Below are positions 362 through 27,297 of a stretch of 32,000 nucleotides of DNA, piece by piece. Source of the stretch: Candidatus Iainarchaeum sp. (GTDB lineage: Archaea > Iainarchaeota > Iainarchaeia > Iainarchaeales > DTGL01). The stretch is from assembly GCA_038886995.1 (NCBI GenBank), contig JAWALG010000001.1, positions 14,635-46,634 of the forward strand, given 5' to 3'. Both the position numbers and the translations under genes were made by a program. Below the pieces are notes generated by a model. It did not search any database. It saw only the letters and a program-made list of their open reading frames with translations, and was not told the DNA's origin. Every line of letters begins with the position of its first letter. The stretch's first letter is position 1.

Positions 362-784
362 TCAGTTTGAGATTATTATGCTGTTTAGGTCATCTGAACA
401 CGAAAGTTCAACTATTGCCGGAAAAACCAATGGCTCATTCTTTATAATTATGTTGCAGTCCTCGCATACTTTGTTCTTTTTAAAGTATGCTTTTAGCGCA
501 TTTAGGTCAAATGTTTCGCCAGTAATCTTTTCGGTTTTTACATTATACACACCGCAATTTGCATCTCTGGCGCCAAAAGCACACGATTTCCAGCATTTTG
601 ACATTTCAATGAAAAACTGCTGGTATTGAATGTCATTCATAGGTCCTTTGCAACTATCAGGTATGAAAAGGCATGTAATTGATTTTTGAAGCCCGCTGAA
701 GTCAATGCCCACTATAAAAGCTAACACCACCATGCCAACCGCAAACGCAAAAATAAAGAATATCACCACTTCTATTGCCTGCAT
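362..784 (-). CDS. cysteine-rich pilin-like protein (140 aa), last gene of the locus A operon
   Basis: Internal ATG at 784 is preceded by AGGTG 6 nt upstream. The longer track ORF would overlap the upstream micro-ORF. N-terminus MQAIEVVIFFIFAFAVGMVVLAF is a short leader plus hydrophobic helix. There are 8 Cys, including a C-x3-C (KCWKSC) about 64 residues in. Confidence 0.55.
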   Translation of the reverse strand: MQAIEVVIFFIFAFAVGMVVLAFIVGIDFSGLQKSITCLFIPDSCKGPMNDIQYQQFFIEMSKCWKSCAFGARDANCGVYNVKTEKITGETFDLNALKAYFKKNKVCEDCNIIIKNEPLVFPAIVELSCSDDLNSIIISN

Positions 785-792
785 ACAAACAC

Positions 793-885
793 CTACTTCA
801 ATGCTGAGTAAACATACATTAAGATAAGGCCGACTACGGCAAGGCCAACTATAACTTCTATGATCTGCCAAGTTGTTTTGCTCAT
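793..885 (-). CDS. 30-aa single-helix membrane micro-protein (MSKTTWQIIEVIVGLAVVGLILMYVYSALK)
   Basis: Not in the ORF track because it is under 60 aa. Its ATG overlaps the TGA of the platform gene as ATGA (882-885). GAGGGGGTG lies about 8 nt upstream. The QIIEV motif matches the QAIEV N-terminus of the next gene. Confidence 0.4.
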   Translation of the reverse strand: MSKTTWQIIEVIVGLAVVGLILMYVYSALK

Positions 886-2774
886 CTTGTCAACACCCCC
901 TCAAATATGAATGTTGTAAACATCATAACTCCGATGAAGAAAAGCGCGCTGAATATTAAGAAGCCAGCAAGAAGGTTGCTGAAAATGGTTTTACCTATCT
1001 TGTAACGGTCAGTCCCATATTTAACATTCGCTAGGAATAAACTCAGGACTACTATTGTTAGTATAAGATATATGCCAACGATAACCAAAACTACAGTTGG
1101 CGGTATTATCTGGGAAATTTCTACAAGCTGCAAAGAAAGTTGTATCCCGAAAGCTTTACCAACCCCCTCAATAAGACCAATTATATACTCTAAAGACATC
1201 ACTATTGCCACAGCCATTATTATGGCTGTTGCTGCAAGTATTGGTGCTAATATTTTGCCTGAAAGTTCAATGGTTGCACTTGTATCACTTAAAAGCGTCT
1301 GCATGTAATTGTCAAGCCTAAAGACGGAAAGCGTGTGACTCCTTATCATCTTTGCCGCTTTTGCAGCATTCCTTATATCTGTTTCCGAAAAGTGTATCAA
1401 GCGCCTAAATATCTGTATAAGGCGCTTTGAGGCAACTATTTCGGGTAGCTTAGTATCAACAAAGTCCGCAAGTGTCTTTTTTGTGTTATAAAGAGCATCA
1501 GTTATTTCGCCAAATATCTTAACTACAGCATGTCTCTTAAAGCCATGTCTAATGTAATCTTCCTTAACATCTTCGATTATACTTTCCATTGGCCTGTTAA
1601 GCACAAGGTAACTGCTTACAACCTGAAGAAGATGTGGTATATCATCTTCAACCTCGCGCATCTCAAGCCATATTTTTTCATTAAGTTTAACATAGAATAA
1701 CAAGTAAACTTCTATTGCTAAGAACATGCCAAAAGGCACGCACCACGCTGCAATTAAGCTACCAAGTGAGTATTGCTTTACAATATCCTCTCTTGAACTC
1801 ATGTTTAGGCCTAAAAATTGAATAAGACCAAACCCACAAATGAGTACCGCAATACTTGCACATATTACATATACTGCTGGCGGCATCTTCTTGAATTTTG
1901 GTGAAAGAGATAAGTCGATTGTGTTAACCTGCACCCTATTTAGCGCAAAGTTCATGGCAAAAAGCAAGAGCAATGCTGGACAAAGAATATCGTAAATAAA
2001 TATCAGCATTGGCACATTAACCATGTTTGGGAGAAATATTGAAATCATTGGCAAAAGTATGAGTGACATCATTGGCAACATAACTCCAACAGAAACTAAA
2101 TTTTTTGCCTGGTTTGAAAGAGTTTCAGTTGTTCTTTTTCCCATTGTATAGTAGCCCTGCATTATTGTCTTTATGCCCTCTTTTAGCATATTGTCCCTTT
2201 CGCTGAGAGGCGCCAAGCTTGCTGTTTGCAGGATAGTAAGACCTTTTACGAAATCAGGATTTATTTCCATCCATATTGGGATATAATCCTCAAAGGCATC
2301 GCCGAGAGTGGCATATTGCTGGAGCTCCATTTTGGCAACAATATCCCTAAACTGTTTACCTAAAACACCCGTAAGGCCTTTTGAAGTTTCTGTAAAAGCA
2401 AATTCTATGCTTGTGTTCAAGCTTATGTAATTAGCCATTTCAAGCAAGGCTTGAAGCATCTCTTCTTTTTGCTGCATTATACCTTGGGTATAGTAGATGC
2501 TTGCACCGTAGAGATAAGAGGATATTGCTAGAAGGGCTGATGTAAAAATAAAGATATAGCCAAAAAGCTCAAATAGCCAAAGCTTTGCGGCAGCACCAAC
2601 AATAAAAAAGAATATCCCTGCAAAAGCAGGCAATATAAACCATATGAATATCCCTGAGAGGAACTCCGCTGAACTATATGGAAACTCAACCTGTTTGAAT
2701 TTTTTTTCGAGGGAAGGCGATTTTGGAAAAATTTTTATTGTCTTGCCAGTATTGTAAACAAAATCAAAATACAT
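882..2774 (-). CDS. type IV filament platform protein, fused FlaJ/ArlJ/TadBC-like polytopic membrane protein (630 aa)
   Basis: Two soluble helical-bundle segments are each followed by clusters of TM helices, the T2SS-F-like architecture. It lies immediately downstream of the secretion ATPase in the same operon. Confidence 0.65.
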   Translation of the reverse strand: MYFDFVYNTGKTIKIFPKSPSLEKKFKQVEFPYSSAEFLSGIFIWFILPAFAGIFFFIVGAAAKLWLFELFGYIFIFTSALLAISSYLYGASIYYTQGIMQQKEEMLQALLEMANYISLNTSIEFAFTETSKGLTGVLGKQFRDIVAKMELQQYATLGDAFEDYIPIWMEINPDFVKGLTILQTASLAPLSERDNMLKEGIKTIMQGYYTMGKRTTETLSNQAKNLVSVGVMLPMMSLILLPMISIFLPNMVNVPMLIFIYDILCPALLLLFAMNFALNRVQVNTIDLSLSPKFKKMPPAVYVICASIAVLICGFGLIQFLGLNMSSREDIVKQYSLGSLIAAWCVPFGMFLAIEVYLLFYVKLNEKIWLEMREVEDDIPHLLQVVSSYLVLNRPMESIIEDVKEDYIRHGFKRHAVVKIFGEITDALYNTKKTLADFVDTKLPEIVASKRLIQIFRRLIHFSETDIRNAAKAAKMIRSHTLSVFRLDNYMQTLLSDTSATIELSGKILAPILAATAIIMAVAIVMSLEYIIGLIEGVGKAFGIQLSLQLVEISQIIPPTVVLVIVGIYLILTIVVLSLFLANVKYGTDRYKIGKTIFSNLLAGFLIFSALFFIGVMMFTTFIFEGVLTR

Positions 2775-2797
2775 TTCAAATCATCCTAAAACATAAC

Positions 2798-4462
2798 CTA
2801 TTTCCAAAGCAATTGCAAGCGTTTTTCATACTCTTCCTTGAACTTATTCTCTGCCTCTTCGCTTTGAAGCGGCTTTATTTTTTCAAAGGCCTCGGCAAAC
2901 CACTTGTTTGCTTTTAGCACGTAAGGCCCTTCAAGCTTCTCCTTGAAAACTGACATTGTCTCCACAAACCTTTGTTTAGCCCATGCTCTCAAACTGATAT
3001 CACGCCAAACCTTCTCGTAAGAGTCATATTCCATGCTAGTTTCCATTATGTTTTGAATGGTAACAGAGTTGCCTTTTAGCAATGCTTGCGTAGGAACCAA
3101 AGAGTCCTCTTTTTTATCATAAGTCATGAGTGTTCTGAAAACAGGTTCATCCTGCCAGTCCTTAAGGACTTCAACAACTTGGGTAACACGCCTCACATGG
3201 TAAAGGCCTGTTGGCGATTTAATCTGCTTTATTATTATAATAAGGTCTGTTACCTTGAATGACCCTTTTGGAACACCTAAGTCATTTACAACACGGTCAA
3301 AAACACCGTATGGGTTGTCAGCATGTATAGTGCCAGCAACAGTATTTGCCATTGCGCCTACGCGCATTGCTTCATAAAGGACTTTTGCTTCCTGAGAACG
3401 TACTTCACCCAGTATGAGGCATGAGTTGCCCAACCTTAAGCAGGTCCTAAGGCCTTTTTCGAAAGGTATTTCTAGGCCCTCTGGTGAAAGCGCTGAACGA
3501 ACTTTAAAGGAAAGTATATCGTAGCCATACTCTTTGTAGAAGTTTATTGGAAGCTCTTGGGTGTCTTCAATTGTTATAATCCTATATTTTGGAAGTATTT
3601 CGAGCATGCATGCACTGAGCAGAGATGTCTTTCCTGAGCCACGAGGCCCAGCCGTTAGGAAAGTCCTGCCGTGTGTGATCATGAATGACATGAAACCTGC
3701 GAAAAGAGGGCTTATGGTCCTATTAGCTATAAAAAGAGGCAAAGTCCATGGTTTTTCCCTGTGGCGCCTTATTGAATAACCAATGCCGTGTATTGAAAAT
3801 GGCTGCACAACAGCAGCAACCCTTGCCCTTTGATTTTCTACAACTAGTTCAGCGTCAAGCTGCGGCTGTGCCTTGTTAAGAGGCCTTCCAGAATTTATTT
3901 TAAGGTAAGTTGCTAAATAGTTTAAGAAGTCGATTGAAGGGTATAGGTTTGTTCTGCATTCATCAAAATCATCATGTACAACCCTAAAAGGGCTTTGGAA
4001 TTCGGGAGGATTTATATTTATCTCCTGAACTTTTGGATCACACATTAAGTAGTCGAGAATTCCGTGTTGCTTTATCCAACGCACAAGTACAGGATCCTTA
4101 AGCTCTCTGCTTTCATATTCTTTGTACAGGTAGAGCAATTGCTCCATGTTTGGCTCCAGATGTGGTATCGTTATCGTGTAAGTTGGCTCAAGGTTCTCTT
4201 CTTCCTGCACAATCTTTACATTTGCATCTTTTATCTTGTATGACTTGAGTACTTTGCCGCGAACTGGCTTTATAAGGCAATCAACAAAGAATGGGTAAAT
4301 TACATAAGAGTTATCCTTAAGGTATTGCTGCTTTGTAAAAATCTTATTTTTATAAACAATAAGGTCAAGGTCCTTTTGTGGCTTAATGCATTGCTCACAC
4401 ATTGGAAAGCTCTTATCGCCGAGACCTACGCAATTGCTGCAATCCCTAATTACATACTTCAT
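2798..4462 (-). CDS. type II/IV secretion-family ATPase (FlaI/ArlI/PilB/VirB11-like) with an N-terminal 4-Cys zinc ribbon
   Basis: Walker A is TAGPRGSGKTSLLSA, followed by IITIEDTQEL. The Walker B region is CLILGEVRSQEA and the His-box-like region is AGTIHAD. The N-terminus carries CSNC-x10-CEQC. Its start shares an ATGA overlap with the upstream gene. Confidence 0.85.
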   Translation of the reverse strand: MKYVIRDCSNCVGLGDKSFPMCEQCIKPQKDLDLIVYKNKIFTKQQYLKDNSYVIYPFFVDCLIKPVRGKVLKSYKIKDANVKIVQEEENLEPTYTITIPHLEPNMEQLLYLYKEYESRELKDPVLVRWIKQHGILDYLMCDPKVQEININPPEFQSPFRVVHDDFDECRTNLYPSIDFLNYLATYLKINSGRPLNKAQPQLDAELVVENQRARVAAVVQPFSIHGIGYSIRRHREKPWTLPLFIANRTISPLFAGFMSFMITHGRTFLTAGPRGSGKTSLLSACMLEILPKYRIITIEDTQELPINFYKEYGYDILSFKVRSALSPEGLEIPFEKGLRTCLRLGNSCLILGEVRSQEAKVLYEAMRVGAMANTVAGTIHADNPYGVFDRVVNDLGVPKGSFKVTDLIIIIKQIKSPTGLYHVRRVTQVVEVLKDWQDEPVFRTLMTYDKKEDSLVPTQALLKGNSVTIQNIMETSMEYDSYEKVWRDISLRAWAKQRFVETMSVFKEKLEGPYVLKANKWFAEAFEKIKPLQSEEAENKFKEEYEKRLQLLWK

Positions 4463-5040
4463 TGTGAAGCACCTTTTTCAGATACCTCTTTGCCATAATA
4501 ATCAATATATCTTTTTGCACGCTCCAATCGATCTTTAAGTGCGATATCGACTGTTGCGCCAACAACATCCTCAATCTTCTTTACCCTTGAGTTCATGTTT
4601 TCAAGGTCGCGCATCATTGATTCGAAAAGGTCTGGGGCGCGTATGGATGCAAGCCCACCAAATGTCTTTTCAACCTGGAGTATTTGTTCCCTTACTGCCG
4701 TATACCTTTGCAAAAGTTCTCCTGATAGGGCACGCTTTTTTAGTTCGCTTTCAGCGGCTTCTAGTTCCTCTATCGATGTAGATATTAGATTGGACTTTGA
4801 TGCAAGTATTTCTGTTCTTTTGCTAAGTTCATTTATCTTAGATTCAATCTCAAATGCAGAATACGATGTTCCTGCAATTATTGCATTTCTTAACTTTTCA
4901 AGCCTTGCTTTCTGCATCATTACTTGCGCACTTATATACCTGCATTTCTCTAGAATCATTGGGTCGCCATCAAATCTTACTTGCTCAAAGTCCGCTATGT
5001 TTGGATTGTAAAATTTTACCTTTGGTTTCTCGTCTGACAT
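4459..5040 (-). CDS. soluble coiled-coil protein (193 aa), function unknown
   Basis: No hydrophobic segment. Long charged heptad-like stretches (RLEKLRNAI..., SIEELEAAESELKKRA...). Translationally coupled to the ATPase start through an ATGA overlap. Confidence 0.6.
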   Translation of the reverse strand: MSDEKPKVKFYNPNIADFEQVRFDGDPMILEKCRYISAQVMMQKARLEKLRNAIIAGTSYSAFEIESKINELSKRTEILASKSNLISTSIEELEAAESELKKRALSGELLQRYTAVREQILQVEKTFGGLASIRAPDLFESMMRDLENMNSRVKKIEDVVGATVDIALKDRLERAKRYIDYYGKEVSEKGASQ

Positions 5041-5051
5041 CTTAACACACT

Positions 5052-5681
5052 TTAACGCTTAAAAAGCCCTTTAAGGCCTCCTGAAGGCTTTGGTTGCTGT
5101 GGTTGAGAAAATGGCTGCTGGGGGTATTGTGGCATATACTGCGGCGGATATTGTGCTATTTGTGCCTCAGAAATCTTGCTTATCTTGAAAAGCTCTTCTA
5201 TCCTTTTTAACCTGTGGTTGAGTTCGTCAATTATTTCTACAAGCTCAACAAGTATTTTTGTTGATTTAGATCCCATAAGCTTCTCCTGAAGCTCTTCAAT
5301 ATTTTTTATCCTCGACTCTAAGAGCTGAACCTGCTTCTCAGAAATGCCCTCTTGCAGAAGATTTTTCAAAACCTCTTGATCCTTCCTAATTTCAGCAATT
5401 TTCTCAACCGCTAACTCAAGCTTTGATTCAACGCTATCAATGGTTTCCTCAATGGAAGTTAGCTTCTCAACATTCTCGCTATATTCGGTTAGCGGCGATC
5501 CTAAAACAATTGTCTTGTCGAGGTTGTCAAGCTCTACGCGCAAATTTTCAAGCTGGCCGACAAGAAAGTTCAGGTTTGCGTTTACCTCTGAAAGATTTTT
5601 CTGCTTTGACTGCGATATAATGGCAAGAGAACTTTCAACGCCGCCAATCTTATTCTTCACGGATTCAATCTTTGGGTCCAT
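5052..5681 (-). CDS. soluble coiled-coil protein with a Q/P-rich C-terminal tail (209 aa), first gene of the locus A operon
   Basis: I chose the start at the internal MDPKIESVKNK because the TATA box TTTATATATA (5715-5724, minus strand) lies inside the longer track ORF. The body is E/K/L-rich coiled coil. The tail is QYPPQYMPQYPQQPFSQPQQPKPSGG. Confidence 0.6.
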   Translation of the reverse strand: MDPKIESVKNKIGGVESSLAIISQSKQKNLSEVNANLNFLVGQLENLRVELDNLDKTIVLGSPLTEYSENVEKLTSIEETIDSVESKLELAVEKIAEIRKDQEVLKNLLQEGISEKQVQLLESRIKNIEELQEKLMGSKSTKILVELVEIIDELNHRLKRIEELFKISKISEAQIAQYPPQYMPQYPQQPFSQPQQPKPSGGLKGLFKR

Positions 5682-5816
5682 AAAAATCCCTATTCTTATT
5701 CTTAGTGTTTGCCTATATATAAATGTTTTCATAGCGGCTAAAGGCCAAATACCTGGTTCAGTAAAAGATAAATTTAAATATAAAAATGGTAATATGTATA
5801 AGCAAGAGGCGAAAAA
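5682..5816. promoter_or_regulatory. divergent promoter region of locus A
   Basis: TTTATATATA (5715-5724, minus strand) lies about 35-40 nt upstream of the ATG at 5681. TTTAAATATAAAAA (5773-5786, plus strand) lies about 35 nt upstream of the ATG at 5817, with GAGG 7 nt before that ATG. Confidence 0.4.
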
Positions 5817-6215
5817 ATGGAGCTTCCCATCTCTGTAATGATAACAATTTTTGTAGCCCTTGCCGTAGGTGCTATGCTCTTAACATTAAGCCAAGGTTGG
5901 CTCTCAGGCCTAGAGCTTCCTTGGGTGCCCCAAAATAAAGGTGAAACTAAAATTATCCAGCAGATAAGCATAACAAACTCACAAATAGGCAAGCTTCTAA
6001 GGTCATGTTATGAAGAAATGAATCAAAAGCCAAAAATGGAATATTATACTTGTTATGCGATAACTGTTGAAAACCCAGTAACTGTGGATCCTGCTGAAGT
6101 TGCAAAGGAATTGCCTGGAATTGACACTAATAGCTACCACATAGACAGCGGCACTACAAGAAGCATAACAATATTTTGGAACTACCCAAGCAGTAAGGTG
6201 GAGGTGAGGGTATGA
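5817..6215 (+). CDS. pilin-like / N-terminally anchored small secreted protein (132 aa, 2 Cys)
   Basis: N-terminus MELPISVMITIFVALAVGAMLL is a hydrophobic helix with no canonical KG/A cleavage motif. It is the first gene of the plus-strand operon and overlaps the next gene as ATGA. Confidence 0.5.
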   Translation: MELPISVMITIFVALAVGAMLLTLSQGWLSGLELPWVPQNKGETKIIQQISITNSQIGKLLRSCYEEMNQKPKMEYYTCYAITVENPVTVDPAEVAKELPGIDTNSYHIDSGTTRSITIFWNYPSSKVEVRV

Positions 6216-6772
6216 ATCAGAAAGGAATGGAAATGGCAATACAGGTCTTCATAATTCTTTTTGTGCTATTAGCTGTAGCGTTGCTTGTTTTGCAGATGGT
6301 TTCACAGCAAGTGATAAAAGTTGGCGGTGAACTCGAAAAGAAGACAATTGATGAGTGGAAACAAGAATGCCAAAACCTATGCATAAAGGCAAAAGATATG
6401 GCAGGAAAGGTCAATTTCTGCAAACATGTTTTTACCCAAGGTGTGGATCTGACAAAAAATCAGCTCAAAAACGATTATGATGAGGAGCTACTTGCAGGTA
6501 TTGGTATCTGCGAAAACCGCATACCATGCCCTATTTTGGTTGATTGTGATGCTGACGGCGCATTGCTGAAAATGGAGAGTTGTAAAAGCATAATGTGCAG
6601 TTACTGGAAGACACAGGGCTTTTCTACTGAAGAGGCAAGTGCAAACCTGAAAAAATTTATACAGCCGGGAGACTGCTATTCTGATCCAATGAACCAGCCA
6701 AACCATTGGTTCACGAGGTTATTTGACAAAAACAAAGATGGCAAAGCAAGCGATGATGAAGTGGTCTGCTAA
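6212..6772 (+). CDS. cysteine-rich pilin-like protein with two EF-hand-type loops (186 aa, 10 Cys)
   Basis: MNQKG|MEMAIQVFIILFVLLAVALLVL is a class III-like leader. It has the C-x3-C ECQNLC. The loops DCDADGALLKME (aa 111-122) and DKNKDGKASDDE (aa 172-183) fit D-x-[DN]-x-D-G-x-x-x-x-x-E. The protein ends in ...EVVC. Confidence 0.6.
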   Translation: MNQKGMEMAIQVFIILFVLLAVALLVLQMVSQQVIKVGGELEKKTIDEWKQECQNLCIKAKDMAGKVNFCKHVFTQGVDLTKNQLKNDYDEELLAGIGICENRIPCPILVDCDADGALLKMESCKSIMCSYWKTQGFSTEEASANLKKFIQPGDCYSDPMNQPNHWFTRLFDKNKDGKASDDEVVC

Positions 6773-6792
6773 AAAATCAGCGGTAGGGAAAA

Positions 6793-7203
6793 ATGGAGAA
6801 TGCTGTTTGGGTAGTTTTTGGAATAATAACGGTTTTCTTAGCCATGGGGATATTGCTTACGATGGTTGAAAACAATAGGGAACAAACCAAGATAAAGACC
6901 AACGAAAATGCAGTAAAGGCCTTTGCGCAATGGTGCAATTTTGTATGTGACTCAGAGGTTGAAACGCGCCTAGGCAAAGAAATTGAAATTTCATCAGGCG
7001 CAGTCATGAGTGGCCATGGCAAAGGGGTTTGCATTGACTACAAAAACAATAAAAATTGTGAATACTGCAAATGCGATGTGAACGCTATAGAACTAAACCT
7101 AAATGAACCAGATATAATAAAAGCATACGATACCCACGCTTTCAGGTGCATATTTGAAAAAACAGACATAGAGGTTGTGGCAATTGAATGCAGAGGTACC
7201 TAA
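6793..7203 (+). CDS. cysteine-rich pilin-like protein (136 aa, 8 Cys)
   Basis: N-terminus MENAVWVVFGIITVFLAMGILL is a hydrophobic helix. It has C-x3-C (WCNFVC) at aa 48-52 and a CEYCKC cluster. Confidence 0.55.
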   Translation: MENAVWVVFGIITVFLAMGILLTMVENNREQTKIKTNENAVKAFAQWCNFVCDSEVETRLGKEIEISSGAVMSGHGKGVCIDYKNNKNCEYCKCDVNAIELNLNEPDIIKAYDTHAFRCIFEKTDIEVVAIECRGT

Positions 7204-7207
7204 GCAA

Positions 7208-7588
7208 ATGCTTCAGAAAGGCAGCATTTCAATAAATGTAATGATTTACATAGGCGTTGCCCTTGCTTGTGGCATTGCTTTGTTTTGGTTTTTGCAGAAT
7301 TTCTTCAGCGCACAGATGCTTTTTGAGAAGATGGACAATGACTTAATGCATATGGCCTCAAGGATCAATGAAAACTGCGATTCTAACTATTTTTTATTTT
7401 ACCACAACCCAGTAATAGAAGAAGGTAAAATTGACTTCAACAAGGACTCTGCATGCATGGAAAATAGAAATGTAAGGCGATGTGTAAAGCTTCTCTGCGG
7501 CCCAGAGTTTTTGGTAAGCTTCAAGCTTGAGGACTTAAACATAATAATTTTTGAGAAAGCTCAGACCTTAACAATCTGGACGCAATAG
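7208..7588 (+). CDS. pilin-like protein (126 aa)
   Basis: ATG at 7208 sits just after the TAA of the previous gene at 7201-7203. MLQKG|SISINVMIYIGVALACGIALFWF is a class III-like leader. There are 4 extracytoplasmic Cys. Confidence 0.55.
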   Translation: MLQKGSISINVMIYIGVALACGIALFWFLQNFFSAQMLFEKMDNDLMHMASRINENCDSNYFLFYHNPVIEEGKIDFNKDSACMENRNVRRCVKLLCGPEFLVSFKLEDLNIIIFEKAQTLTIWTQ

Positions 7589-12661: not shown

Positions 12662-13069
12662 TTAGCAGTTTTGCACCTTTAAAAAAATAGCATCTTTTTG
12701 GCGCTTAAGCAAAAAGCAAGAGGTTTTATTCAAAGAGAGGGTGCTATTTGAAGAGATTACTTTAAATGCAGTATCAACATTAATGTCAGAACCATTGACT
12801 GAAAGTGTTATAAGCCCAGGCCTTATTGAAAAGTTCCAATCTTGCAAGGGATTGCATCTAAGTTCAAGTTCAGAGCCCTCGGAAAGTTGTTCCATTAGCT
12901 TTATTGAGCTTTTAAGCTCTGAGGCAAAAAGCTTTGCATTTGCCAAATCAATTGCTTTAATGGATTTGCTATAGGCCCTACTGGCTGAAGGTAGAATAAG
13001 GCACATGGCAGCAATTGCCACGGCAAGCACTATCAAAAACTCCAAGGAAATTTGCGCTTTTTGGTTCAT
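12662..13069 (-). CDS. class III signal peptide pilin B5 (135 aa)
   Basis: The leader MNQKA|QISLEFLIVLAVAIAAM is the canonical archaeal Q-x-S-x-E-[FY]-L-I pattern. The protein ends in ...KVQNC. Confidence 0.75.
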   Translation of the reverse strand: MNQKAQISLEFLIVLAVAIAAMCLILPSASRAYSKSIKAIDLANAKLFASELKSSIKLMEQLSEGSELELRCNPLQDWNFSIRPGLITLSVNGSDINVDTAFKVISSNSTLSLNKTSCFLLKRQKDAIFLKVQNC

Positions 13070-13076
13070 TAGACCA

Positions 13077-13262
13077 CTAGCTTAAGTTGCCTATATCATC
13101 TACCTTCTTGAAAAGCTCTTGCGAGCGCTTGTCTATGGACTTGCTTGCTTGAGTTGCTGATGCTTGAAGCTTTGATACAACAAGCAATGCAACCACTATA
13201 AGCGCTGCTAGCACAAGAATCATTTCAAGGGAAATCTGTGCTTTATTGCCTATGCCTCTCAT
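13077..13262 (-). CDS. ultrashort class III signal peptide pilin B6 (61 aa; predicted mature about 52 aa)
   Basis: The leader is MRGIGNKA|QISLEMILVLAALIVVALLVV, with a GGGGG SD 5 nt upstream. The rest is a short polar helix-like tail with no room for a globular domain. Confidence 0.7.
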   Translation of the reverse strand: MRGIGNKAQISLEMILVLAALIVVALLVVSKLQASATQASKSIDKRSQELFKKVDDIGNLS

Positions 13263-13332: not shown

Positions 13333-13914
13333 ATGAAGAGAAGAGAGTTACAGGATCTCATAATAAGCTGGCTTACAATAAGCATTGCTTTCACAAGGAT
13401 AGGCCGTCTTCTTGACTTAGGGCATTTTTTCTACCTTTTCCCAATTAGCTTGATCGCGGTGGGTACTGGTTTTGTAGCACATGAACTAGCGCACAGAGCA
13501 GTAGCAAGAAAATATGGCTGCCACGCAGAGTTTGTGATGTGGCCTGAAGGCCTGATTATCGCGCTTATATCTTCTCTCATTGGCTTTATCTTTGCTGCAC
13601 CTGGCGCAGTATATGTATATGGCCCTCACTTAACAAGGAGGCAAAACGCAAAGATCTCGCTTGCTGGACCTGTGATGAATACTGCAATTGGTATTTTTTT
13701 CCTTTTTATATCTTTCTTCTTTATTGGAAACAGGGGCACATACATTGGTGAACTTTTTTTCGGAGTTGCAACTTTAAACCTTTGGTTTGCAACTTTCAAT
13801 CTTATTCCGTTTCCACCATTAGATGGGAGTAAGATATTGACATACTTCCCGGGCATTTGGCTGATGCTTTTATTGGGAAATATTTCAATGCTTGCATTTG
13901 TTGGCTTCTTTTAA
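13333..13914 (+). CDS. M50 family site-2 protease-like intramembrane metalloprotease (193 aa, no PDZ)
   Basis: HELAH (HExxH) lies in a TM segment. NLIPFPPLDGSKI matches the NxxPxxxLDG motif. The protein is polytopic. Confidence 0.8.
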   Translation: MKRRELQDLIISWLTISIAFTRIGRLLDLGHFFYLFPISLIAVGTGFVAHELAHRAVARKYGCHAEFVMWPEGLIIALISSLIGFIFAAPGAVYVYGPHLTRRQNAKISLAGPVMNTAIGIFFLFISFFFIGNRGTYIGELFFGVATLNLWFATFNLIPFPPLDGSKILTYFPGIWLMLLLGNISMLAFVGFF

Positions 13915-18448: not shown

Positions 18449-19003
18449 GTGGTTTTGGTGGCAAAAAAGATCGACTTTGCTTCAATAGCCGAGGACCAAA
18501 TAACCCTTTTCATAGTGCCAGCCAAGGACTATGTTGAGGTTGACAATGAGCTTCTTCATTATTTCATAAATGTTAAGAAGATGGGCTGCATATATGTTGC
18601 TGCAAACAAACCGGCACAGCTTGTAAATAAAATACTAGAGAATGCAAAGGTAAACACTGAAAAGATATGGTACATTGATTGTGTCTCAGGAAGGGTTTCT
18701 TCGCCACACAGGATTGAAAAAGTTATTTTTCTTGAAACACCGAGGGACCTAACAAACATGAGCATTGCAATAACAAATTTTGTAAAGAACATGCCTGAAA
18801 AAAGCAAGATGCTTTTCATAGACAGCTTGACAACGCTAACAATCCATAACGACATAAACACTATTGCTAAGTTTACCCATTTCATAATAAACCAAGCAAG
18901 GAACTGGGGCGTATCAATGGCCCTGATATCAATTGAAGAAGAGGCAGAAGCAGAGCTTATAAACAAGATATCCATAATTGTGGATAAAGTTGTAAAGCTT
19001 TAA
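18449..19003 (+). CDS. RecA/KaiC-fold domain protein lacking a P-loop (DUF835-like, predicted inactive)
   Basis: MLFIDSLTTL resembles the KaiC-family Walker B strand (hhhhDS). The expected Walker A position reads LFIVPAKDYVEV, with no GxxGxGK[ST]. GTG start. It is the third gene of the membrane-protein operon. Confidence 0.5.
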   Translation: MVLVAKKIDFASIAEDQITLFIVPAKDYVEVDNELLHYFINVKKMGCIYVAANKPAQLVNKILENAKVNTEKIWYIDCVSGRVSSPHRIEKVIFLETPRDLTNMSIAITNFVKNMPEKSKMLFIDSLTTLTIHNDINTIAKFTHFIINQARNWGVSMALISIEEEAEAELINKISIIVDKVVKL

Positions 19004-20052
19004 TAAGATGCTAAAAGAATTCCTCTAAGGAAAATCCTCGCGAAGAAGAAAATCACTGCAGAAACGAGGAATATTGCTGGAAAATATTTAAGGCCGAATT
19101 TTGCTTTGCCTCTGGAGATTACTCCCATAAACGCGCTCGCAAATAGAGAATTTCCAAAAAGGAGCAAATATGCTGCAATGCTCATGAAAGCCGGGTCTAT
19201 GCTTATGCCCGAAGACAAGAAACCGAGGTTGAACGATCCGCTTGTGTCCCTTGCAATATCTGCTTGCATATTCGAAAGAAGCTCTAGGAAAATAACTGAA
19301 ACAGAAAGAAGCACCGGTGTCATTATTACAACAATGAAAAGAAGAAACATCTCATACATCTTGGTGCCTGATATTAGCGCTTTTTTAAGTTCTTGTGTTT
19401 GCCTCATGTCTTCTGCTGATGTCTCAAGAAGCTCAGCAATTTTGCCTCCAGCACGCATTGACTGTATCATGAAAGGCACCATTTGCTTAAGGTTTTCTGA
19501 GTCAATACTTTCAGAAAGGGCTTTAAGCGACTCTGTAAATGATTCTGTGCCAAGGGATTTTGATGTAGCAATCTTAATCTCCTCAGCCAAAGGACCAAAT
19601 TCTTCCCTTGCAGCGCTCCTGAAAGCAAAGAAAGGAACCATGCCTGCTCTTATGTTGTTTGAAACTAAAAGCATGAAATCGGGCAAAATCTTGTCAACGA
19701 GGTTTGCCCTTGAGTCAATCTTATAATAGAGCATAAGCTGGTATATAACTGCTATGACACAAAATGAAATTATGCCAACGAGGAGAGCAGTTAGGTAAAT
19801 AAGCCCGGTTGGAAACAATGATGAAAAAAGACCACTAAAAACAGTTAGGGGCAAAAGGAAAAACAAAATTGATAAAAGTATTGCAAGGAGAAGCTTTCGC
19901 CCAATATATAGATCAAAATCGCCTTTTATTCCGGCATAAGTTAGCATCTGGTACAAAACCCTTTGCCTTATTTTTGTGGGAACTGCTCTGCTTAGCCCTA
20001 AGCAAACCCTTCTATAGAAGCGTTCAATTGACTTGGAAAGACTCCCGTTCAA
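19000..20052 (-). CDS. T4F platform protein, TadC/FlaJ C-half-like (350 aa)
   Basis: A cytoplasmic helical T2SS-F-like segment (LPDFMLLVSNNIRAGMVPFFAFRSAA...SLKALSESIDSENLKQM...MRAGGKIAELLE) is flanked by TM helices. It overlaps the upstream gene by 4 nt. Confidence 0.75.
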   Translation of the reverse strand: MNGSLSKSIERFYRRVCLGLSRAVPTKIRQRVLYQMLTYAGIKGDFDLYIGRKLLLAILLSILFFLLPLTVFSGLFSSLFPTGLIYLTALLVGIISFCVIAVIYQLMLYYKIDSRANLVDKILPDFMLLVSNNIRAGMVPFFAFRSAAREEFGPLAEEIKIATSKSLGTESFTESLKALSESIDSENLKQMVPFMIQSMRAGGKIAELLETSAEDMRQTQELKKALISGTKMYEMFLLFIVVIMTPVLLSVSVIFLELLSNMQADIARDTSGSFNLGFLSSGISIDPAFMSIAAYLLLFGNSLFASAFMGVISRGKAKFGLKYFPAIFLVSAVIFFFARIFLRGILLASY

Positions 20053-20939
20053 GTCAAAAACACCTTCGGAACTCGGCTTTTAACAAAGCCGATTATTGAT
20101 AGCTGTATTGCAAATGAAAGCACTACTATAAATAAAATTGTTGCAGGACCTATTGATGCACCTGCAAGTGAAGAAAGTATGACGATAAATGTAATGCCTA
20201 AGCTTGGTATGGCTGCTGCAAAAAGCATATACATCAAAACCCACACATTGAGTTCTGCGGAATAATCCCTTATAGCCCTTTCTTGCTCTTTCACAAGCAT
20301 TGCTACAATTGACTGCAAAGCACCTTTAACAGAGGCACCGCTTCTTATGGCGCTCAGCAACTGCCAGCAGGTCTTTTTTAGATGCTCAGAGCTTGTCTTT
20401 ATTGCCATCTTTTCAAGGGCTTTTGCTTCTGATTCGCCAGCATTTATCTCCTTTACAACATACTCAAATTCTTCCGAAACACCAGCATAGCCTGACTTAG
20501 CAACATAAACTAAGGTATTGTAGAGGCTTATGCCAGAGCAAACCTGGACATACATTGATTTTACCGCAAAGAGGAGGTTATTATCTATGGTCCTTGCTCG
20601 GTTATTCGCTATTATGCGCGGATAAAAAACATGCAACAGAAAGAACACAACGCCAAATATTAGACCAAAGAAAAGTGCACTAACAAGTACTGAAGCATCA
20701 AATTGCAGGGATCTTAAAAATAAAAGCGTAGCAAACAAGGCAAAAAAAAGCGCAAAGTATGCAAGCGCTGAAAAAAAAGCAGCAGTAAGGTATTTTTCTG
20801 GGTCAATTTTTATGCCAGCTAGGTGCAAATCATATTTAAGCGGATAGAATAAGTCACTCAGCTTTTCACCAATCCAAAGAAAACGCCTATTGATCCTGTT
20901 TGCGCGTTCAATTGAGAAAAGCATGAACTTTACGCGCAT
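20049..20939 (-). CDS. T4F platform protein, TadB/FlaJ N-half-like (296 aa)
   Basis: The T2SS-F-like segment is IDNNLLFAVKSMYVQVCSGISLYNTLVYVAKSGYAGVSEEFEYVVKEINAGESEAKALEKMA...LLSAIRSGASVKGAL, flanked by TM helices. Confidence 0.75.
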   Translation of the reverse strand: MRVKFMLFSIERANRINRRFLWIGEKLSDLFYPLKYDLHLAGIKIDPEKYLTAAFFSALAYFALFFALFATLLFLRSLQFDASVLVSALFFGLIFGVVFFLLHVFYPRIIANNRARTIDNNLLFAVKSMYVQVCSGISLYNTLVYVAKSGYAGVSEEFEYVVKEINAGESEAKALEKMAIKTSSEHLKKTCWQLLSAIRSGASVKGALQSIVAMLVKEQERAIRDYSAELNVWVLMYMLFAAAIPSLGITFIVILSSLAGASIGPATILFIVVLSFAIQLSIIGFVKSRVPKVFLT

Positions 20940-20940
20940 C

Positions 20941-22848
20941 TTATGCCTCCAAAAACATTGCTGGCTTTTTATTCTGCTTTGCTGCCTCTAAAACCTCATC
21001 TGGATTGGCGTAAAATGCCTTCATTATGCTGCCAACCTGGTTTATATCGCTTACGTTGTTGTTAAGCATCCACTCTATGATGTGGGCCCTACCATCAAGG
21101 TCTTCGGCAATTTCCTGTTCAGTGAGGCCTGTGTGCAGATTAATGTTCCCAACAAGCTTAGTTGGCTTGTTGAGCATATCCCACTTATCAGTCCTTGGAG
21201 ACCATTTGAATACAGTGTTTATTCGCAACTGTGCTCCTGTTGTTCCTGTCTCAATCTCGCAGATTTCATAGCTACGCCTTCTGTTCGTTTTCCTATCCCT
21301 GTACTGCACTAGTATGAGATCAAGACCTTCAACCTCTAGCGGAGGCAATGATATTGGTGGCTCCAGCAGGCGTCTTAAAACCTGTTGGCCTGAGTTTGCG
21401 TGCAGCGTACTGTATACGCTGTGGCCTGTGTGCAACGCTTCAAACAATACCTCTGCTTCTTTCTTCTTTCTTATCTCACCAAGGATTATTCTGTCAGGCC
21501 TCATCCTAAGTGAAGCATGCATAAGGTCAAGCATTTTAACCTCGCCAAGGCCTTCAGGGTTTGGGTTCCTTGTTGTCATTGGCACCCAGTTCCACTGAAG
21601 GTGGCTTGGAAGCATTATTTCGCGCACATCTTCTATTGAAATGATTCTGTGGTAGGGTGGCATGAAAACGCACAAGGCATTTAGCATTGCGGTTTTTCCT
21701 GAAGCCGTGCCGCCTGCAACAAGCATGCTCATTTCGTATTGCATTGCAAGCCAGAGCAAAGAGGCCATCTCTATGCTAAGCGTATGCCTTACGCCAATTA
21801 AATCAACAATTGTCCAAGGCCTTCTTGCAAAGCGCCTTATTGTTAAGGTGTTTCCAAAGGAAGATATTGGGAATAGAGAGGCATGGACCCTGTCGCCAGT
21901 AATTATGTGGGCATCGAGCAGCGGATTGAGCGTTGTTATCTCTCTGCCAACTTTCCTTGCAATTTGTGAAGCATAGTTTGCTATTGCATCCTCAGAAAGA
22001 GGCATTATATTTGTTCTCATCCAGCCGTATTCCTTGTGGTAAACAGTAATGTGCGTTTTAGAGGAATTTATTGCTACTTCTTCAAGGTCATTATCACCCA
22101 TTATTAGTTCAATTATGCCAAGGCCATACATTTCATGTAGAAGCAGCCCTGCAAGGATATCCTGAAGTTTAGGGTCTGAGCCGAAATACTCCTGAAGGAC
22201 CTTTTTGGCCTCATCAAAGTATCTTCTCTTGAGCTCTTGGCTTTTCTTAGTATCGGTTATTTCTGAAACCTCAACAGGCACGTGCTCAACAATTTTGTTC
22301 TTTATTTCATCAAGGAATATTTTAGTATAAGGCCTAAAGGTTGGCGGAATCAGGTTGTAGTAAAGCATTCGGTCCTCTGTGGAGCGAACAATTTCAACAC
22401 GCACTGGCACATTATCAACTGAATGTTTTTTTTGCTCAACTTTCTTGCCATCAAAAACAAAGAGTTTTGGTTCTGTAATAAGGGTAAGAAGCACGACCCT
22501 CGGGCGCTTGATGACTGTTGTGGGGTAAACAAGCTTTACAACGCTTGACATCTCAAGGATCCTGCCTATGTTTTCTACGGCATCTATGCTGAGACCAAGC
22601 TTGCTAGCGAGCTCATTCAAGGACGCGCTTTTCTTCACCTTGAGTATATCTACTAGAGAGTCAACTGGCGTAGTTATTGGGTCTCTTAAGTCGTCATAGT
22701 CATTTTGCTTTTTCTCTTTTTCTTCAGTTTGGTGCTTTGGGCTATAATAATGCTCTTCTTCCGCATTTGGTTCTTCCTTAGGCCTAAGTGGAAGAACAAT
22801 ACTTTGGCCTTCTTCTGAAGCTTTTACTATTTTGCTCTTTTTCTTCAC
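20941..22848 (-). CDS. type IV filament assembly ATPase (FlaI/ArlI/TadA-like) with an N-terminal charged region plus a wHTH-like domain
   Basis: Walker A is VAGGTASGKTAMLNAL, followed by IISIEDVREI. Walker B is RPDRIILGEIRKKKEAE and the His box is GHSVYSTLHAN. GTG start with AAGGTG 7 nt upstream. The N-terminal 120 aa are extra. Confidence 0.9.
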   Translation of the reverse strand: MKKKSKIVKASEEGQSIVLPLRPKEEPNAEEEHYYSPKHQTEEKEKKQNDYDDLRDPITTPVDSLVDILKVKKSASLNELASKLGLSIDAVENIGRILEMSSVVKLVYPTTVIKRPRVVLLTLITEPKLFVFDGKKVEQKKHSVDNVPVRVEIVRSTEDRMLYYNLIPPTFRPYTKIFLDEIKNKIVEHVPVEVSEITDTKKSQELKRRYFDEAKKVLQEYFGSDPKLQDILAGLLLHEMYGLGIIELIMGDNDLEEVAINSSKTHITVYHKEYGWMRTNIMPLSEDAIANYASQIARKVGREITTLNPLLDAHIITGDRVHASLFPISSFGNTLTIRRFARRPWTIVDLIGVRHTLSIEMASLLWLAMQYEMSMLVAGGTASGKTAMLNALCVFMPPYHRIISIEDVREIMLPSHLQWNWVPMTTRNPNPEGLGEVKMLDLMHASLRMRPDRIILGEIRKKKEAEVLFEALHTGHSVYSTLHANSGQQVLRRLLEPPISLPPLEVEGLDLILVQYRDRKTNRRRSYEICEIETGTTGAQLRINTVFKWSPRTDKWDMLNKPTKLVGNINLHTGLTEQEIAEDLDGRAHIIEWMLNNNVSDINQVGSIMKAFYANPDEVLEAAKQNKKPAMFLEA

Positions 22849-22892
22849 TTAAAACACCTTTAGTCAATATATCTCATACCATATTAATAAAC

Positions 22893-23738
22893 TTATCCGC
22901 TGAAAAGCGTAACTTCAGAAGACCATTTCGAGTTGCCCATAGCAATGTTGAGATCGCAAGGCCAATATATTCTGACTGGGTTTGTGGCTTTTATAGAAGC
23001 ACTAAGGTTTAAGTCCAAATTCCTTTCAGATAAGTTGTTTTGGACTCTTATTGCACCAGTCCCCCCAGCAATGCTTCCGAAAGAAACATTAATGTCTCCG
23101 CTTAAATCCTTGAATTTTATAATGTATTCTTTGTCATCAGAATTTGATGCATTGCAAACAGTTTCAAGAGGAAGTCCGCTGGCATCTCTCAACCTCAAAA
23201 TAATCTTTGTAGTGCCCAGGTCACAGCTCCACTCAATCGAATTTTCATCATCATAATAACCACCAGAGAAATAAAGATTTATGTCATAAGAGTAAGCTTC
23301 AGTATCAGATGATGGGGCATAAAATAGAACATAGTTTTCATCAATGCTGCGCACGTATCTGATTCCATTTGAAAATTGTAGCTCAGTGGAAGGAGTTAAG
23401 TTGCACATGGAAATTTTAACATTTCTCTTTTCGGAGTATGGCCCTTCAATGAATCCCTTCCAGGAGCTTATATTGCTGTGTGAGGTCTTTATTGGAATTG
23501 AATCTTGTATTTTTATCTCATAAGAGTTTGCAGAGCTTTCAGCAGATATTCTAAAGCCAAAGACGCTTTTTGTGTCTTCAGCAATATCTGAAGCAATGTC
23601 AGAAACCTTTAATGCAGATGTGCTCTCTAAAATAAGCTTTTGTTCTGCCTGGTTTGACCTTAAATAATATACTGATGCGATTAGAAGCACTGAAAGCAGT
23701 ATTGCAACTGAAATCGTAACAACAAAGCCCTTTTTCAA
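22893..23738 (-). CDS. pilin-like protein C1 (281 aa)
   Basis: The leader is MKKG|FVVTISVAILLSVLLIASVYY. A large beta-rich body follows, with 4 Cys. Confidence 0.6.
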   Translation of the reverse strand: MKKGFVVTISVAILLSVLLIASVYYLRSNQAEQKLILESTSALKVSDIASDIAEDTKSVFGFRISAESSANSYEIKIQDSIPIKTSHSNISSWKGFIEGPYSEKRNVKISMCNLTPSTELQFSNGIRYVRSIDENYVLFYAPSSDTEAYSYDINLYFSGGYYDDENSIEWSCDLGTTKIILRLRDASGLPLETVCNASNSDDKEYIIKFKDLSGDINVSFGSIAGGTGAIRVQNNLSERNLDLNLSASIKATNPVRIYWPCDLNIAMGNSKWSSEVTLFSG

Positions 23739-23744
23739 AAAAAA

Positions 23745-24158
23745 TCACCTGTACCAGGCAAGTACCTCTGCAAGGTATGCCTTTCCTGTTTTATTGGAGA
23801 AGAAGCTCCTCTTGTATGAGGCCCTCTCAGTATACTTTGAAATGCAGCCAACCTTGTATGTGCTAAAAAGCACACCGTTGATGTCTTCAGAGCTATAAAT
23901 CCTGATTTCAAGGCAAAGCCTCCGCGGAGAAACATTAATTATTGTACTAAGCTCAGTCATTTCATTTTCATCAATTGCTCTTTCGAAATAGCCGCCTTTT
24001 TCAAGAGCTGCCCCTATGTCGGAAGCGAAGTCGTAAAGTGCAGCGCTTTGGAAAGCGCTGAAGCTTATGCCTGAGAAATAAAATGTAACTATGCCGAGAA
24101 GAATCATTAGGACAGTAAGAGAGAACAATGCGTCCATTGAAAGTACAAAGCCCTTCAC
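23745..24158 (-). CDS. pilin-like protein C2 (137 aa)
   Basis: The leader is MKG|FVLSMDALFSLTVLMILLGIV. It shares an ATGA overlap with the upstream gene. Confidence 0.6.
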   Translation of the reverse strand: MKGFVLSMDALFSLTVLMILLGIVTFYFSGISFSAFQSAALYDFASDIGAALEKGGYFERAIDENEMTELSTIINVSPRRLCLEIRIYSSEDINGVLFSTYKVGCISKYTERASYKRSFFSNKTGKAYLAEVLAWYR

Positions 24159-25034: not shown

Positions 25035-25055
25035 AAGGTCACCTTAAATATTTTA

Positions 25056-27233: not shown

Positions 27234-27297
27234 ACTTAACACTATTATTATAACAATAGGAAGTTATTAATAATAACGATTATTGCAAATAGCCAAC

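Follow-up and report, generated by a model that had tools for sequence, protein, structure and literature searches.

Among the archaeal type IV filament (T4F) systems described so far, those closest to the locus reported here appear to be the ones of ATPase subclade 4F. In the published ATPase tree this subclade holds Haloterrigena turkmenica gi 284176147, Haloferax volcanii, Methanocella and Methanosarcinales, and the ATPases of Nanoarchaeum equitans and Nst1 form a long branch inside it; 4F ATPases often have a Cys-rich domain at the N-terminus as well as a coiled-coil accessory protein, and the nanoarchaeal members carry the remark "cognate pilins not identified" (Makarova, Koonin and Albers 2016). 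Described 4F systems include the PilB2/PilC2 regulon of Haloferax volcanii, next to cetZ2, and the Haloterrigena pHTUR04 locus (Makarova 2016; Sivabalasarma and Albers 2026); the pilins assigned to 4F are arCOG02981, arCOG10216 and arCOG03360 and its coiled-coil protein is arCOG07564. Two type IV pilus (T4P)-like loci with CpaF, TadC and coiled-coil proteins are conserved across cluster-2 DPANN archaea (Hamm et al. 2024, Nat Commun 15:6449). Proteomics confirmed that they are expressed in Ca. Nanohaloarchaeum antarcticus, and host interaction was proposed as their role; the coiled-coil proteins were described as sigma-1-like attachment proteins and pilins were listed for locus 1 only (Hamm et al. 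2024). A 2026 census of the superfamily of type IV filaments (TFF) singles out no DPANN-specific system (Sivabalasarma and Albers 2026), and pili and secretion go unmentioned in a survey of DPANN protein families (Castelle et al. 2021). Here we analyse locus A, a ten-gene set (p1 to p10, Table 1) first noticed at positions 362-7588 of a 32,000-nucleotide stretch of Candidatus Iainarchaeum sp. (contig JAWALG010000001.1, positions 14,635 to 46,634), hereafter the window, which also holds what looks like a canonical pilus locus (Locus B).

We consider that locus A is probably the Iainarchaeota copy of a T4F machine found DPANN-wide. The reading draws on the predicted secretion ATPase (p3) and membrane platform (p4), on six small proteins that begin with a hydrophobic helix (p5 to p10), on two coiled-coil proteins (p1 and p2), and on the conservation of this whole arrangement.

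Conservation of gene content and order across DPANN

Homologues of the p3 ATPase run into the thousands. The best 120 all come from DPANN-type metagenome-assembled genomes (MAGs), with identities of 64-99% in Diapherotrites/Iainarchaeota, 61% in Micrarchaeota and 50-56% in Woesearchaeota, Nanoarchaeota and Altiarchaeota-labelled MAGs; between DPANN phyla, p3 orthologues are 50-66% identical. Eight genomic contexts fetched with the ATPase and 34 loci retrieved with the platform profile were examined with iterated hidden Markov models (HMMs); numbers preceded by L are our identifiers for retrieved loci. Nearly everywhere the order is the same: one or more coiled-coil genes, ATPase, platform, p5, p6 (1-3 copies), p7, p8, p9 and p10, with p1/p2, p7/p8 and p9/p10 forming paralogue pairs. 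All ten genes keep this order in Iainarchaeota, Micrarchaeota, Woesearchaeota, Nanoarchaeota and one Altiarchaeota-labelled MAG, and one cluster of platform sequences comes from Aenigmatarchaeota. Ordered orthologues of all ten genes in dozens of independent contigs lie far beyond what chance would give. The synteny search that had been proposed in the first-pass annotation of this DNA, made from the sequence alone, recovered the ten-gene order across DPANN, and the link to host-dependent archaea that it suggested agrees with a family specific to DPANN.

In Nanohaloarchaeota (L039-L043, e.g. L041:3157-11784) the module is reduced and rearranged. Here the ATPase is a protein of 761 aa with extra Cys clusters and has a platform paralogue on either side (739 and 710 aa). 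Next come a p7-like gene, the gene of a 197-aa Cys-rich protein with a KG leader, and a p8-like gene with a canonical signal (KG↓QMSLE; here and below the arrow marks the end of the leader). Our profiles for p5, p6 and p9 detected no member in these five loci.

Clustering of the neighbouring genes returned further families, all without a Pfam domain: a seventh small protein (18 loci), two large proteins of ~600 and ~750 aa (23 and 20 loci, respectively), a 254-aa secreted protein (8 loci) and, upstream of the ATPase in Woesearchaeota-type loci, an extra tail-anchored coiled-coil family. The window has a member of just one of these families, the 254-aa one, in the form of the gene truncated at its left edge. 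One 923-aa member of the large downstream families (L002:17977-20748) has weak Hint_2, PT-HINT and intein-splicing matches at residues ~439-587, which suggests a HINT-type insertion or autoprocessing domain.

Some contigs with the module (L018, L023-L029, L042; P0075) are labelled Chloroflexi bacterium, uncultured Methanosarcinales archaeon or Nitrosarchaeum sp.; these labels probably reflect mis-binning or mislabelling and not a true occurrence beyond DPANN. A mobile-element or viral origin of locus A was considered and rejected, as the identity pattern tracks taxonomy and the locus is flanked by housekeeping genes. In the inspected DPANN contexts, genes for DNA handling or division are not conserved near the module, and no ABC transporter adjoins it either there or in the window.

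A divergent secretion ATPase with intact catalytic motifs

The p3 product passes the Pfam T2SSE model (59 bits, E 4e-16, cut-off 24.9) and resembles archaeal FlaI and GspE2 and bacterial TadA/CpaF, far under all equivalog cut-offs (in NCBIfam, 113.6 vs 550 for FlaI and 80.7 vs 1000 for BasE). Against the PDB its best matches are AfGspE2 (83 bits) and FlaI (82 bits), both at E 1e-22, compared with 241 and 183 bits, respectively, for the Locus B ATPase, to which p3 is only about 22-30% identical, the figure for the two window sequences being 30%. The motif strings that the first-pass annotation had quoted for the two ATPases (GPRGSGKTS vs GGTASGKTA, CLILGEVR vs DRIILGEIR, AGTIHA vs STLHA) are correct, but its statement that p3 departs from the canonical copy 'at every signature' goes too far, since all four catalytic motifs are intact: Walker A reads AGPRGSGKT, the Asp box TIEDTQEL, Walker B LILGEVR and the His box GTIHAD. 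Each of the four is at least 90% conserved in 114 family members, with consensus AGPRGSGKT, TIEDTqEL, ScLIxGEiR and GTiHxD, so the divergence of p3 is not decay. The N-terminus adds a four-Cys cluster (C8, C11, C22, C25), each Cys being present in at least 60% of the 114 relatives. By its motifs, p3 is a catalytically intact T2SSE secretion ATPase of the hexameric type. In the Ca. Iainarchaeum LacPavin MAG (L011:1649-3098) the ATPase is spread over two overlapping open reading frames (ORFs; 1649-2842 and 2541-3098), either a frameshift pseudogene or an assembly error.

A remote platform protein in a single chain

Of the two Pfam checks proposed at first pass, the one on p3 was positive, while for p4 the outcome depends on the breadth of the family: the window copy alone has no T2SSF match, and it is the wider family that passes. 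Among close relatives of p4, 15 of 22 match Spore_III_AB and 3 of 22 match T2SSF. A p4 family profile retrieved 606 cluster representatives from 1.84 billion proteins, and 26 of the 63 members sampled from this wider family pass T2SSF, with a best E of 1e-10. In profile-profile alignment (hhalign) the p4 family matches the Haloterrigena 4F platform with 94.6% probability over 521 columns; against the two platform halves of Locus B the probability is 0.6%, in a comparison based on a 2-sequence profile only. The AlphaFold2 (AF2) model of p4 (predicted local distance difference test, pLDDT, 80.5) is all-helical and consists of two similar halves. On family membership and predicted fold we accept p4 as a remote, single-chain, double-T2SSF platform, its membership in the T2SSF family being transitive.

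Placement on the 4F lineage

The best non-DPANN match of p3, found among plasmid records, is the ATPase of Haloterrigena turkmenica pHTUR04 (35% identity, 218 bits); scores of the other haloarchaeal ATPases stay at or under 110 bits. In a neighbour-joining (NJ) tree, in which this ATPase was the one 4F reference sequence, the DPANN p3 family is its sister in 100% of 200 bootstraps, and the resulting clade stands apart from three other haloarchaeal ATPases, a CpaF and the ATPase of Locus B, which sits on a separate branch. The pHTUR04 ATPase can be equated, by inference, with the published 4F leaf gi 284176147, because that genome has no other clade-4 ATPase and the gi lies outside the chromosomal range. 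Judged from these alignments, the ATPase and platform of locus A belong to the subclade 4F lineage. ATPase, platform and tree agree with the original impression of a T4F-type gene set that is neither an archaellum nor the canonical locus of the same window.

Beside the pHTUR04 ATPase lies a gene for a 604-aa 'secretion system protein' with no Pfam match, the platform to which the p4 family was aligned above. The accessory proteins of that locus, DUF7311 and DUF7382, have no significant similarity to p1-p10 by HMM or hhalign in this one 4F locus. The sole likeness of DUF7382 to p1-p10 is an N-terminal 'LPIRLVIAL' stretch: the N-terminus of the DUF7382 protein (L009:7113-7640; ...EG↓LPIRLVIALVVGVAALAL) resembles the p7 start, MELPIxhhITLFVAL, and scores 8 bits with the p8 profile. 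This may be a remnant of an origin that the p7/p8 family and the 4F pilin-like proteins have in common.

Six small predicted pilin-like proteins

All six small proteins start with a hydrophobic 19-residue segment of mean Kyte-Doolittle hydropathy 2.3-2.9. Together with the leadered and leaderless paralogues described below, this upholds the first-pass view of their N-terminal helices as pilin-like, and we regard p5-p10 as putative pilin-like proteins. The Q-x-I-E-V N-terminus then ascribed to the set is found in p5 and p6 only, the other four having different conserved N-termini.

The p5 peptide (consensus M-[NS]-[KR]-T-x4-[IV]-[EG]) has little past its helix and directly follows the platform gene in about 30 loci. 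Its matches to N_methyl and TIGR02532 are weak and sub-threshold, and it may be a helix-only pilin-like or assembly peptide; a match to a His1 capsid protein was rejected as a sub-threshold composition artefact. The p6 protein starts M-Q-A-I-E5, in agreement with a family motif M-[EQ]-x-[IV]-E that places Glu at position 5 from the initiator Met. Orthologues are present in 27 loci, Woesearchaeota having 1-3 copies in tandem, and three Cys (C68, C107, C129) are at least 92% conserved. Neither Pfam nor NCBIfam has a match to p6, which we put forward as the possible repeating subunit. The length of p5 rises to 92-270 aa in some lineages, and in others p6 is fused to far larger C-terminal regions, 257 aa in L001 and 1018 aa in L021 (extended p5 and fused p6 sites: L001:7761-8534, L001:13582-13860, L015:5191-6003, L021:1888-4944), so that the helix-first modules also serve to anchor bigger domains by their N-terminus.

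The remaining four proteins form two pairs, each with one member that begins directly at the helix and one that carries a leader. In the first, p7 starts M-E-L-P-I (family M-E-[ML]-P-I-x-[IV]-x-I-x-L-F-V), and p8 has the same kind of core after x-[KR]-G, its leader reading MNQKG↓MEMAIQVF...; [KR][GAS] precedes the hydrophobic core in 22 of 23 p8 members, and a few p7 members (L018, L019) keep a K-G leader. Nanohaloarchaeal p8 orthologues have a canonical archaeal pilin signal (KRKG↓QMSLEMIIGL). In the second pair, p9 starts M-E-N-A-V-W (family consensus M-E-Q-A-V-W) and p10 has a related core behind its leader (...LQKG↓SISINVMIYIG), with [NS]-x-[KR]-[GA] in at least 15 of 20 members. Both leadered profiles fall in register with canonical proteins of the window at a marginal E of ~1e-3: p8 with the N-terminus of the short pilin at 13077-13262, and p10, at its K-G site, with SKG↓QSSVEVMVIL of the pilin-like protein at 25056-27242.

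In 29 of 37 p6, 15 of 24 p7 and 14 of 19 p9 members the maximal ORF begins with the N-terminal motif itself; as no upstream start is possible in such cases, the leaderless state is not an annotation artefact. By their alignment, p6, p7 and p9 would begin at a mature-type N-terminus, leaderless paralogues being in register with leadered ones. Conserved Cys come in even, widely spaced sets, with two invariant in the p7/p8 families and four in common to p9/p10, a pattern that fits disulfides of extracellular domains better than zinc knuckles. A p7/p8 superfamily profile gave scattered sub-threshold matches only in Pfam and the PDB.

Coiled-coil proteins predicted to be tethered to the membrane

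The paralogy of p1 and p2 is evident from the fact that each profile picks up both proteins. Neither has a transmembrane (TM) segment, and their Pfam matches, all of coiled-coil type, are sub-threshold; those to Snf7 and EzrA were rejected as far sub-threshold coiled-coil artefacts. The p1 protein ends, after a Q/P-rich linker, in an amphipathic basic helix with the motif GGLKGLFKR, which is kept in Iainarchaeota and Micrarchaeota orthologues (GGLKGLFKR, GFFSKLAGFFKRS, IRGFFSRLFRKKS and others). A basic amphipathic end of this type is the pattern of MinD/FtsA-type membrane-targeting sequences, and we read the p1 helix as a putative sequence of this kind. A TM tail anchor takes the place of this helix at the end of the coiled-coil protein encoded upstream of the ATPase in Woesearchaeota, Nanoarchaeota and the Altiarchaeota-labelled locus. 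With an amphipathic helix or a tail anchor according to lineage, a membrane-tethered cytoplasmic coiled coil beside the ATPase would be a conserved feature of the module.

Proposed mechanism and alternative readings

If locus A does encode a T4F machine, p1 and p2 would act as a scaffold, tethered to the membrane, by which the ATPase is positioned or regulated on the platform, and ATP hydrolysis would drive the platform to lift pilin-like subunits from the membrane into a short filament or pseudopilus. The repeating subunit would be p6, with its invariant Glu5 and its tandem duplicates in Woesearchaeota. Single-copy, in fixed order and with conserved Cys pairs, p7-p10 may constitute a minor-pilin-like priming or tip complex, which in other DPANN is followed by the seventh small protein and the two large secreted proteins, candidate adhesins that the complex may carry. 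For their maturation p8 and p10 would depend on a class III signal peptidase whose gene lies elsewhere in the genome; at their mature-equivalent N-terminus, p6, p7 and p9 would require no cleavage. The likeliest role would be contact or exchange with the host cell. Both filament formation and this role are what we infer from the locus.

Several observations weigh against this. The small proteins match no known pilin family or solved pilin structure in Pfam, NCBIfam or the PDB. The p6 homologue search gave one relative only, and the AF2 model built on the resulting 2-sequence alignment has a pLDDT of 43 and is confident only for the helix at residues 2-24. A Foldseek search of the PDB with the p4 model returned nothing significant, PilC ranking fifth with E 1.1. 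Leaderless members have 0.1-0.2 K/R at the N-terminus and 1.6-1.9 after the helix, and the positive-inside rule alone would predict the opposite topology for them; since their N-terminal positive charge is close to nil, the topology that we assign rests on the leadered paralogues. No A24 prepilin peptidase is found in the locus or among the other window ORFs scanned. The peptidase of archaeal systems is commonly encoded elsewhere in the genome. At the level of function, no experiment ties any 4F-type system to a visible filament, and host interaction is deduced for locus A from phyletic distribution only.

Part of the same evidence would suit a bindosome-like or anchoring device, in which ATPase and platform insert and organise small disulfide-bonded surface proteins for the binding or uptake of host compounds and no filament is made. 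Pilin-like helices would hold these proteins in the membrane or pseudo-periplasm, as has been proposed for the bindosome of Sulfolobus. Many distinct single-copy subunits in place of one abundant pilin, and the want of a pilin family match, would be expected of such a device; DPANN depend on scavenging, and the 2026 TFF preprint holds that TFF machines are widely used for binding-protein display. We nonetheless find it unlikely, since the small proteins have no substrate-binding-protein domain in Pfam or NCBIfam, p3 stays as far below the BasE cut-off as given above, no ABC transporter adjoins the locus, and the invariant Glu5 of p6 is a hallmark of filament assembly. Rather unlikely, too, is that the small proteins are bitopic assembly, stator or alignment factors (cf. 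ArlF/ArlG, PilN/PilO) serving pilins from elsewhere, e.g. from the canonical loci. The leaderless members do resemble uncleaved signal-anchor proteins, with a charge distribution atypical for prepilins, but the class III-type leaders of p8 and p10 are bona fide, the mature part of both proteins is in register with the leaderless paralogues, and the nanohaloarchaeal p8 carries a canonical pilin signal. Makarova et al. suggested that nanoarchaeal 4F ATPases may borrow pilins of other loci, and canonical pilins with KAQ↓ISLE-type signals are abundant in this very window; set against that, Glu5 is present in p6, whose genes come in tandem copies as those of a major pilin would, and six co-conserved helix-first proteins exceed any known stator set.

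Very improbable, finally, is a T4F core repurposed for work away from the surface, be it in membrane remodelling, in division or in DNA transfer, with the coiled coils as effectors and the small proteins as membrane adaptors. The Snf7 and EzrA matches of p1 and p2 that would point this way are of the strength typical of any coiled coil; subclade 4D does show that loss of the pilins is possible for an archaeal T4P core (Makarova, Koonin and Albers 2016), and the very high conservation of the ATPase would suit a housekeeping role, yet the locus is rich in conserved Cys pairs of extracellular type, with large secreted proteins following, and DNA-handling and division genes are not conserved nearby. 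Each of these rivals fits fewer observations than the T4F machine does. An extension of the latter, which we regard as doubtful, would make the locus A type an ancestral DPANN host-contact organelle that predates the cluster-1/cluster-2 split, with largely pre-matured subunits and a short filament or pseudopilus that, tipped by the large secreted proteins, makes or primes the bridge to the host. Were this true, pre-matured subunits would need no prepilin peptidase and would be the first natural leaderless type IV pilins.

Layout of the locus

Every ORF of the gene set as first proposed is present (Table 1), and the two ATGA overlaps, p2/ATPase at 4459-4462 and platform/p5 at 882-885, can be read directly in the sequence.

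Table 1. Genes and features of locus A in window coordinates
Feature	Coordinates	Strand	Size	Predicted product or content
p1	5052-5681	minus	209 aa from ATG at 5681	coiled-coil protein
p2	4459-5040	minus	193 aa	soluble coiled-coil protein
p3 ATPase	2798-4462	minus	554 aa	T2SSE / FlaI-GspE2 class
p4 platform	882-2774	minus	630 aa	divergent T2SSF/TadC member
p5	793-885	minus	30 aa	single hydrophobic helix peptide
p6	362-784	minus	140 aa	leaderless pilin-like, Cys-containing domain
FamD start	2-289	minus	first 96 codons	left window edge cuts gene
divergent spacer	5682-5816		135 nt	two TATA-like boxes
p7	5817-6215	plus	132 aa	leaderless pilin-like, p8 paralogue
p8	6212-6772	plus	186 aa	pilin-like with class III-type leader, 10 Cys
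p9	6793-7203	plus	136 aa	leaderless pilin-like, p10 paralogue
p10	7175-7588	plus	137 aa (TTG 7175) or 126 aa (ATG 7208)	leadered pilin-like

An alternative p1 of 226 aa would start at 5732, upstream of the TATA-like box at 5714-5723; we favour the shorter form because this box, that of the minus operon, sits between the two starts. Likewise, the ATG of p6 lies 8 nt past the p5 stop, and a 169-aa TTG form would overlap p5 by 78 nt. The plus operon has its own TATA-like box at 5773-5786 and a GAGG at 5806-5809, and both boxes are suitably spaced from the two first start codons. On these two boxes, the divergent promoter previously placed in the spacer is a putative one. The same split-operon layout is found in the closest relative (L037, Ca. 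Iainarchaeum SKW289; platform identity 88%).

The minus operon does not end at 362, as had been assumed, but continues into the gene that starts at 289 and runs off the left edge (FamD). By tblastn this fragment is 47% identical (E 1e-22) to L007:5185-5949, the gene next after p6 in that close relative, and it also matches L010. At its start it encodes a Sec-type signal peptide (MVTKTTLLIFILLAFFLAGAYS), after which comes a secreted domain; its relatives, the 254-aa family above, are Cys-rich with a C-terminal TM anchor, and no Pfam match was obtained.

As the first-pass annotation had stated, locus A has no archaellin, ArlF/G or KaiC/ArlH match and no prepilin peptidase (Peptidase_A24) in Pfam and NCBIfam scans, and none was found among the other window ORFs scanned. 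The window contains no tRNA and no Rfam family.

Canonical pilus loci in the same window

Locus B (18449-28248) looks like a canonical system-1/Epd-type pilus locus. Its platform is split in two genes, both of which pass T2SSF, and it has a KaiC-family ATPase (27298-28248), a KaiC/DUF7504-like protein (18449-19003) and a run of pilin-like genes, one of them of 728 aa. Directly upstream of a pilin gene at 12662-13069 lies, on the minus strand, a 61-aa ORF (13077-13262) of a length that most gene callers would pass over. It has a textbook class III signal (MRGIGNKAQ↓ISLEMILVLAALIVVALLVV), next to nothing of a globular part, and the look of a helix-only short pilin of the Flp/Epd type. A 193-aa Peptidase_M50 protein (13333-13914, plus strand; site-2 protease-like, HELAHR) stands between two canonical pilin clusters and is the only peptidase found in the window; it is not of the A24 family.

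Significance and comparison with known systems

All cultivated DPANN archaea need direct contact with a host cell, and the locus A module is a good candidate for the machinery that makes and uses it. The module is among the few multi-gene systems whose order is conserved across most DPANN phyla, with an ATPase conserved between phyla as noted above, whereas most DPANN surface proteins evolve fast. Its small proteins p5-p10 could be the 'missing pilins' on which the 2016 work remarked for the nanoarchaeal 4F ATPases, and the module supplies a defined gene list against which proteomes and tomograms of Nanoarchaeum, Nanoclepta, Nanohaloarchaeum and Micrarchaeum can be inspected. If leaderless subunits do assemble, the rule that a dedicated peptidase must mature type IV pilins would have to be altered.

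We found no description in the literature of the accessory set p5-p10 with the further families A-D, of the leaderless/leadered paralogue pairs, of the membrane-tethered coiled-coil pair, or of the locus in cluster-1 DPANN. The 'undescribed subtype' that the first-pass annotation had envisaged is therefore supported in part only, as ATPase and platform lie on the 4F lineage and T4P-like DPANN loci had already been reported (Hamm et al. 2024). The comparison by which it was to be judged, against an already described type with the same accessory genes, likewise gave two answers: the lineage of ATPase and platform is a known one, and the accessory genes differ in the one 4F locus tested.

Among the more distant systems, the archaellum differs from locus A in its archaellins, ArlF/G, ArlH and ArlCDE/ArlX-type neighbours, none of which is matched by p1-p10. 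The Sulfolobus bindosome (4I) differs in its binding-protein domains and ABC transporter, and in the BasE score already cited. The Epd/system 1 pili have in common with locus A the T4F core and helix-only short pilins, p5 and the 61-aa ORF being comparable, but their ATPase is of clade 1 and their platform is made of two genes, where locus A has one fused, divergent protein of 630 aa.

Other likenesses concern mode of action only. The arrangement of a Glu5 repeating subunit with 4-5 single-copy pilin-like proteins in fixed order recalls the pseudopilus of the bacterial type II secretion system (T2SS) and the minor pilins and PilY1 of type IVa pili (T4aP), and large secreted proteins follow the pilin-like genes in other DPANN loci much as in the PilY1 arrangement. 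Unlike these, locus A belongs to an archaeal envelope, has some leaderless subunits, and shows no sequence or fold match, secretin, GspL/M or PilMNOP. In their position directly upstream of the ATPase and their predicted membrane association, p1 and p2 resemble the ArlX/ArlCDE scaffold. ArlX is anchored by an N-terminal TM helix, whereas p1 would rely on the amphipathic helix at its C-terminus, which a tail anchor replaces in other lineages.

Closer to locus A are the DPANN loci of Hamm et al. 2024, which have a CpaF-like ATPase, a TadC-like platform and coiled-coil proteins as well, and either of which may be of the same family. Those loci are restricted to cluster 2 and Undinarchaeota, while the locus A family is also found in cluster 1 (Iainarchaeota, Micrarchaeota).

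The closest relatives remain the 4F systems. Their S-layer-like protein and CetZ2, CBS or SMC neighbours are lacking in the window locus and in the inspected DPANN loci, and the subunit set of locus A is DPANN-specific and half leaderless. What they share is the ATPase lineage with its N-terminal Cys-rich domain, a single-gene platform that escapes Pfam T2SSF and aligns at full length with that of locus A, and a cytoplasmic coiled-coil accessory protein. On this comparison locus A is best described as a DPANN branch of 4F with its own subunit set, a variant within a known superfamily and a known ATPase lineage.

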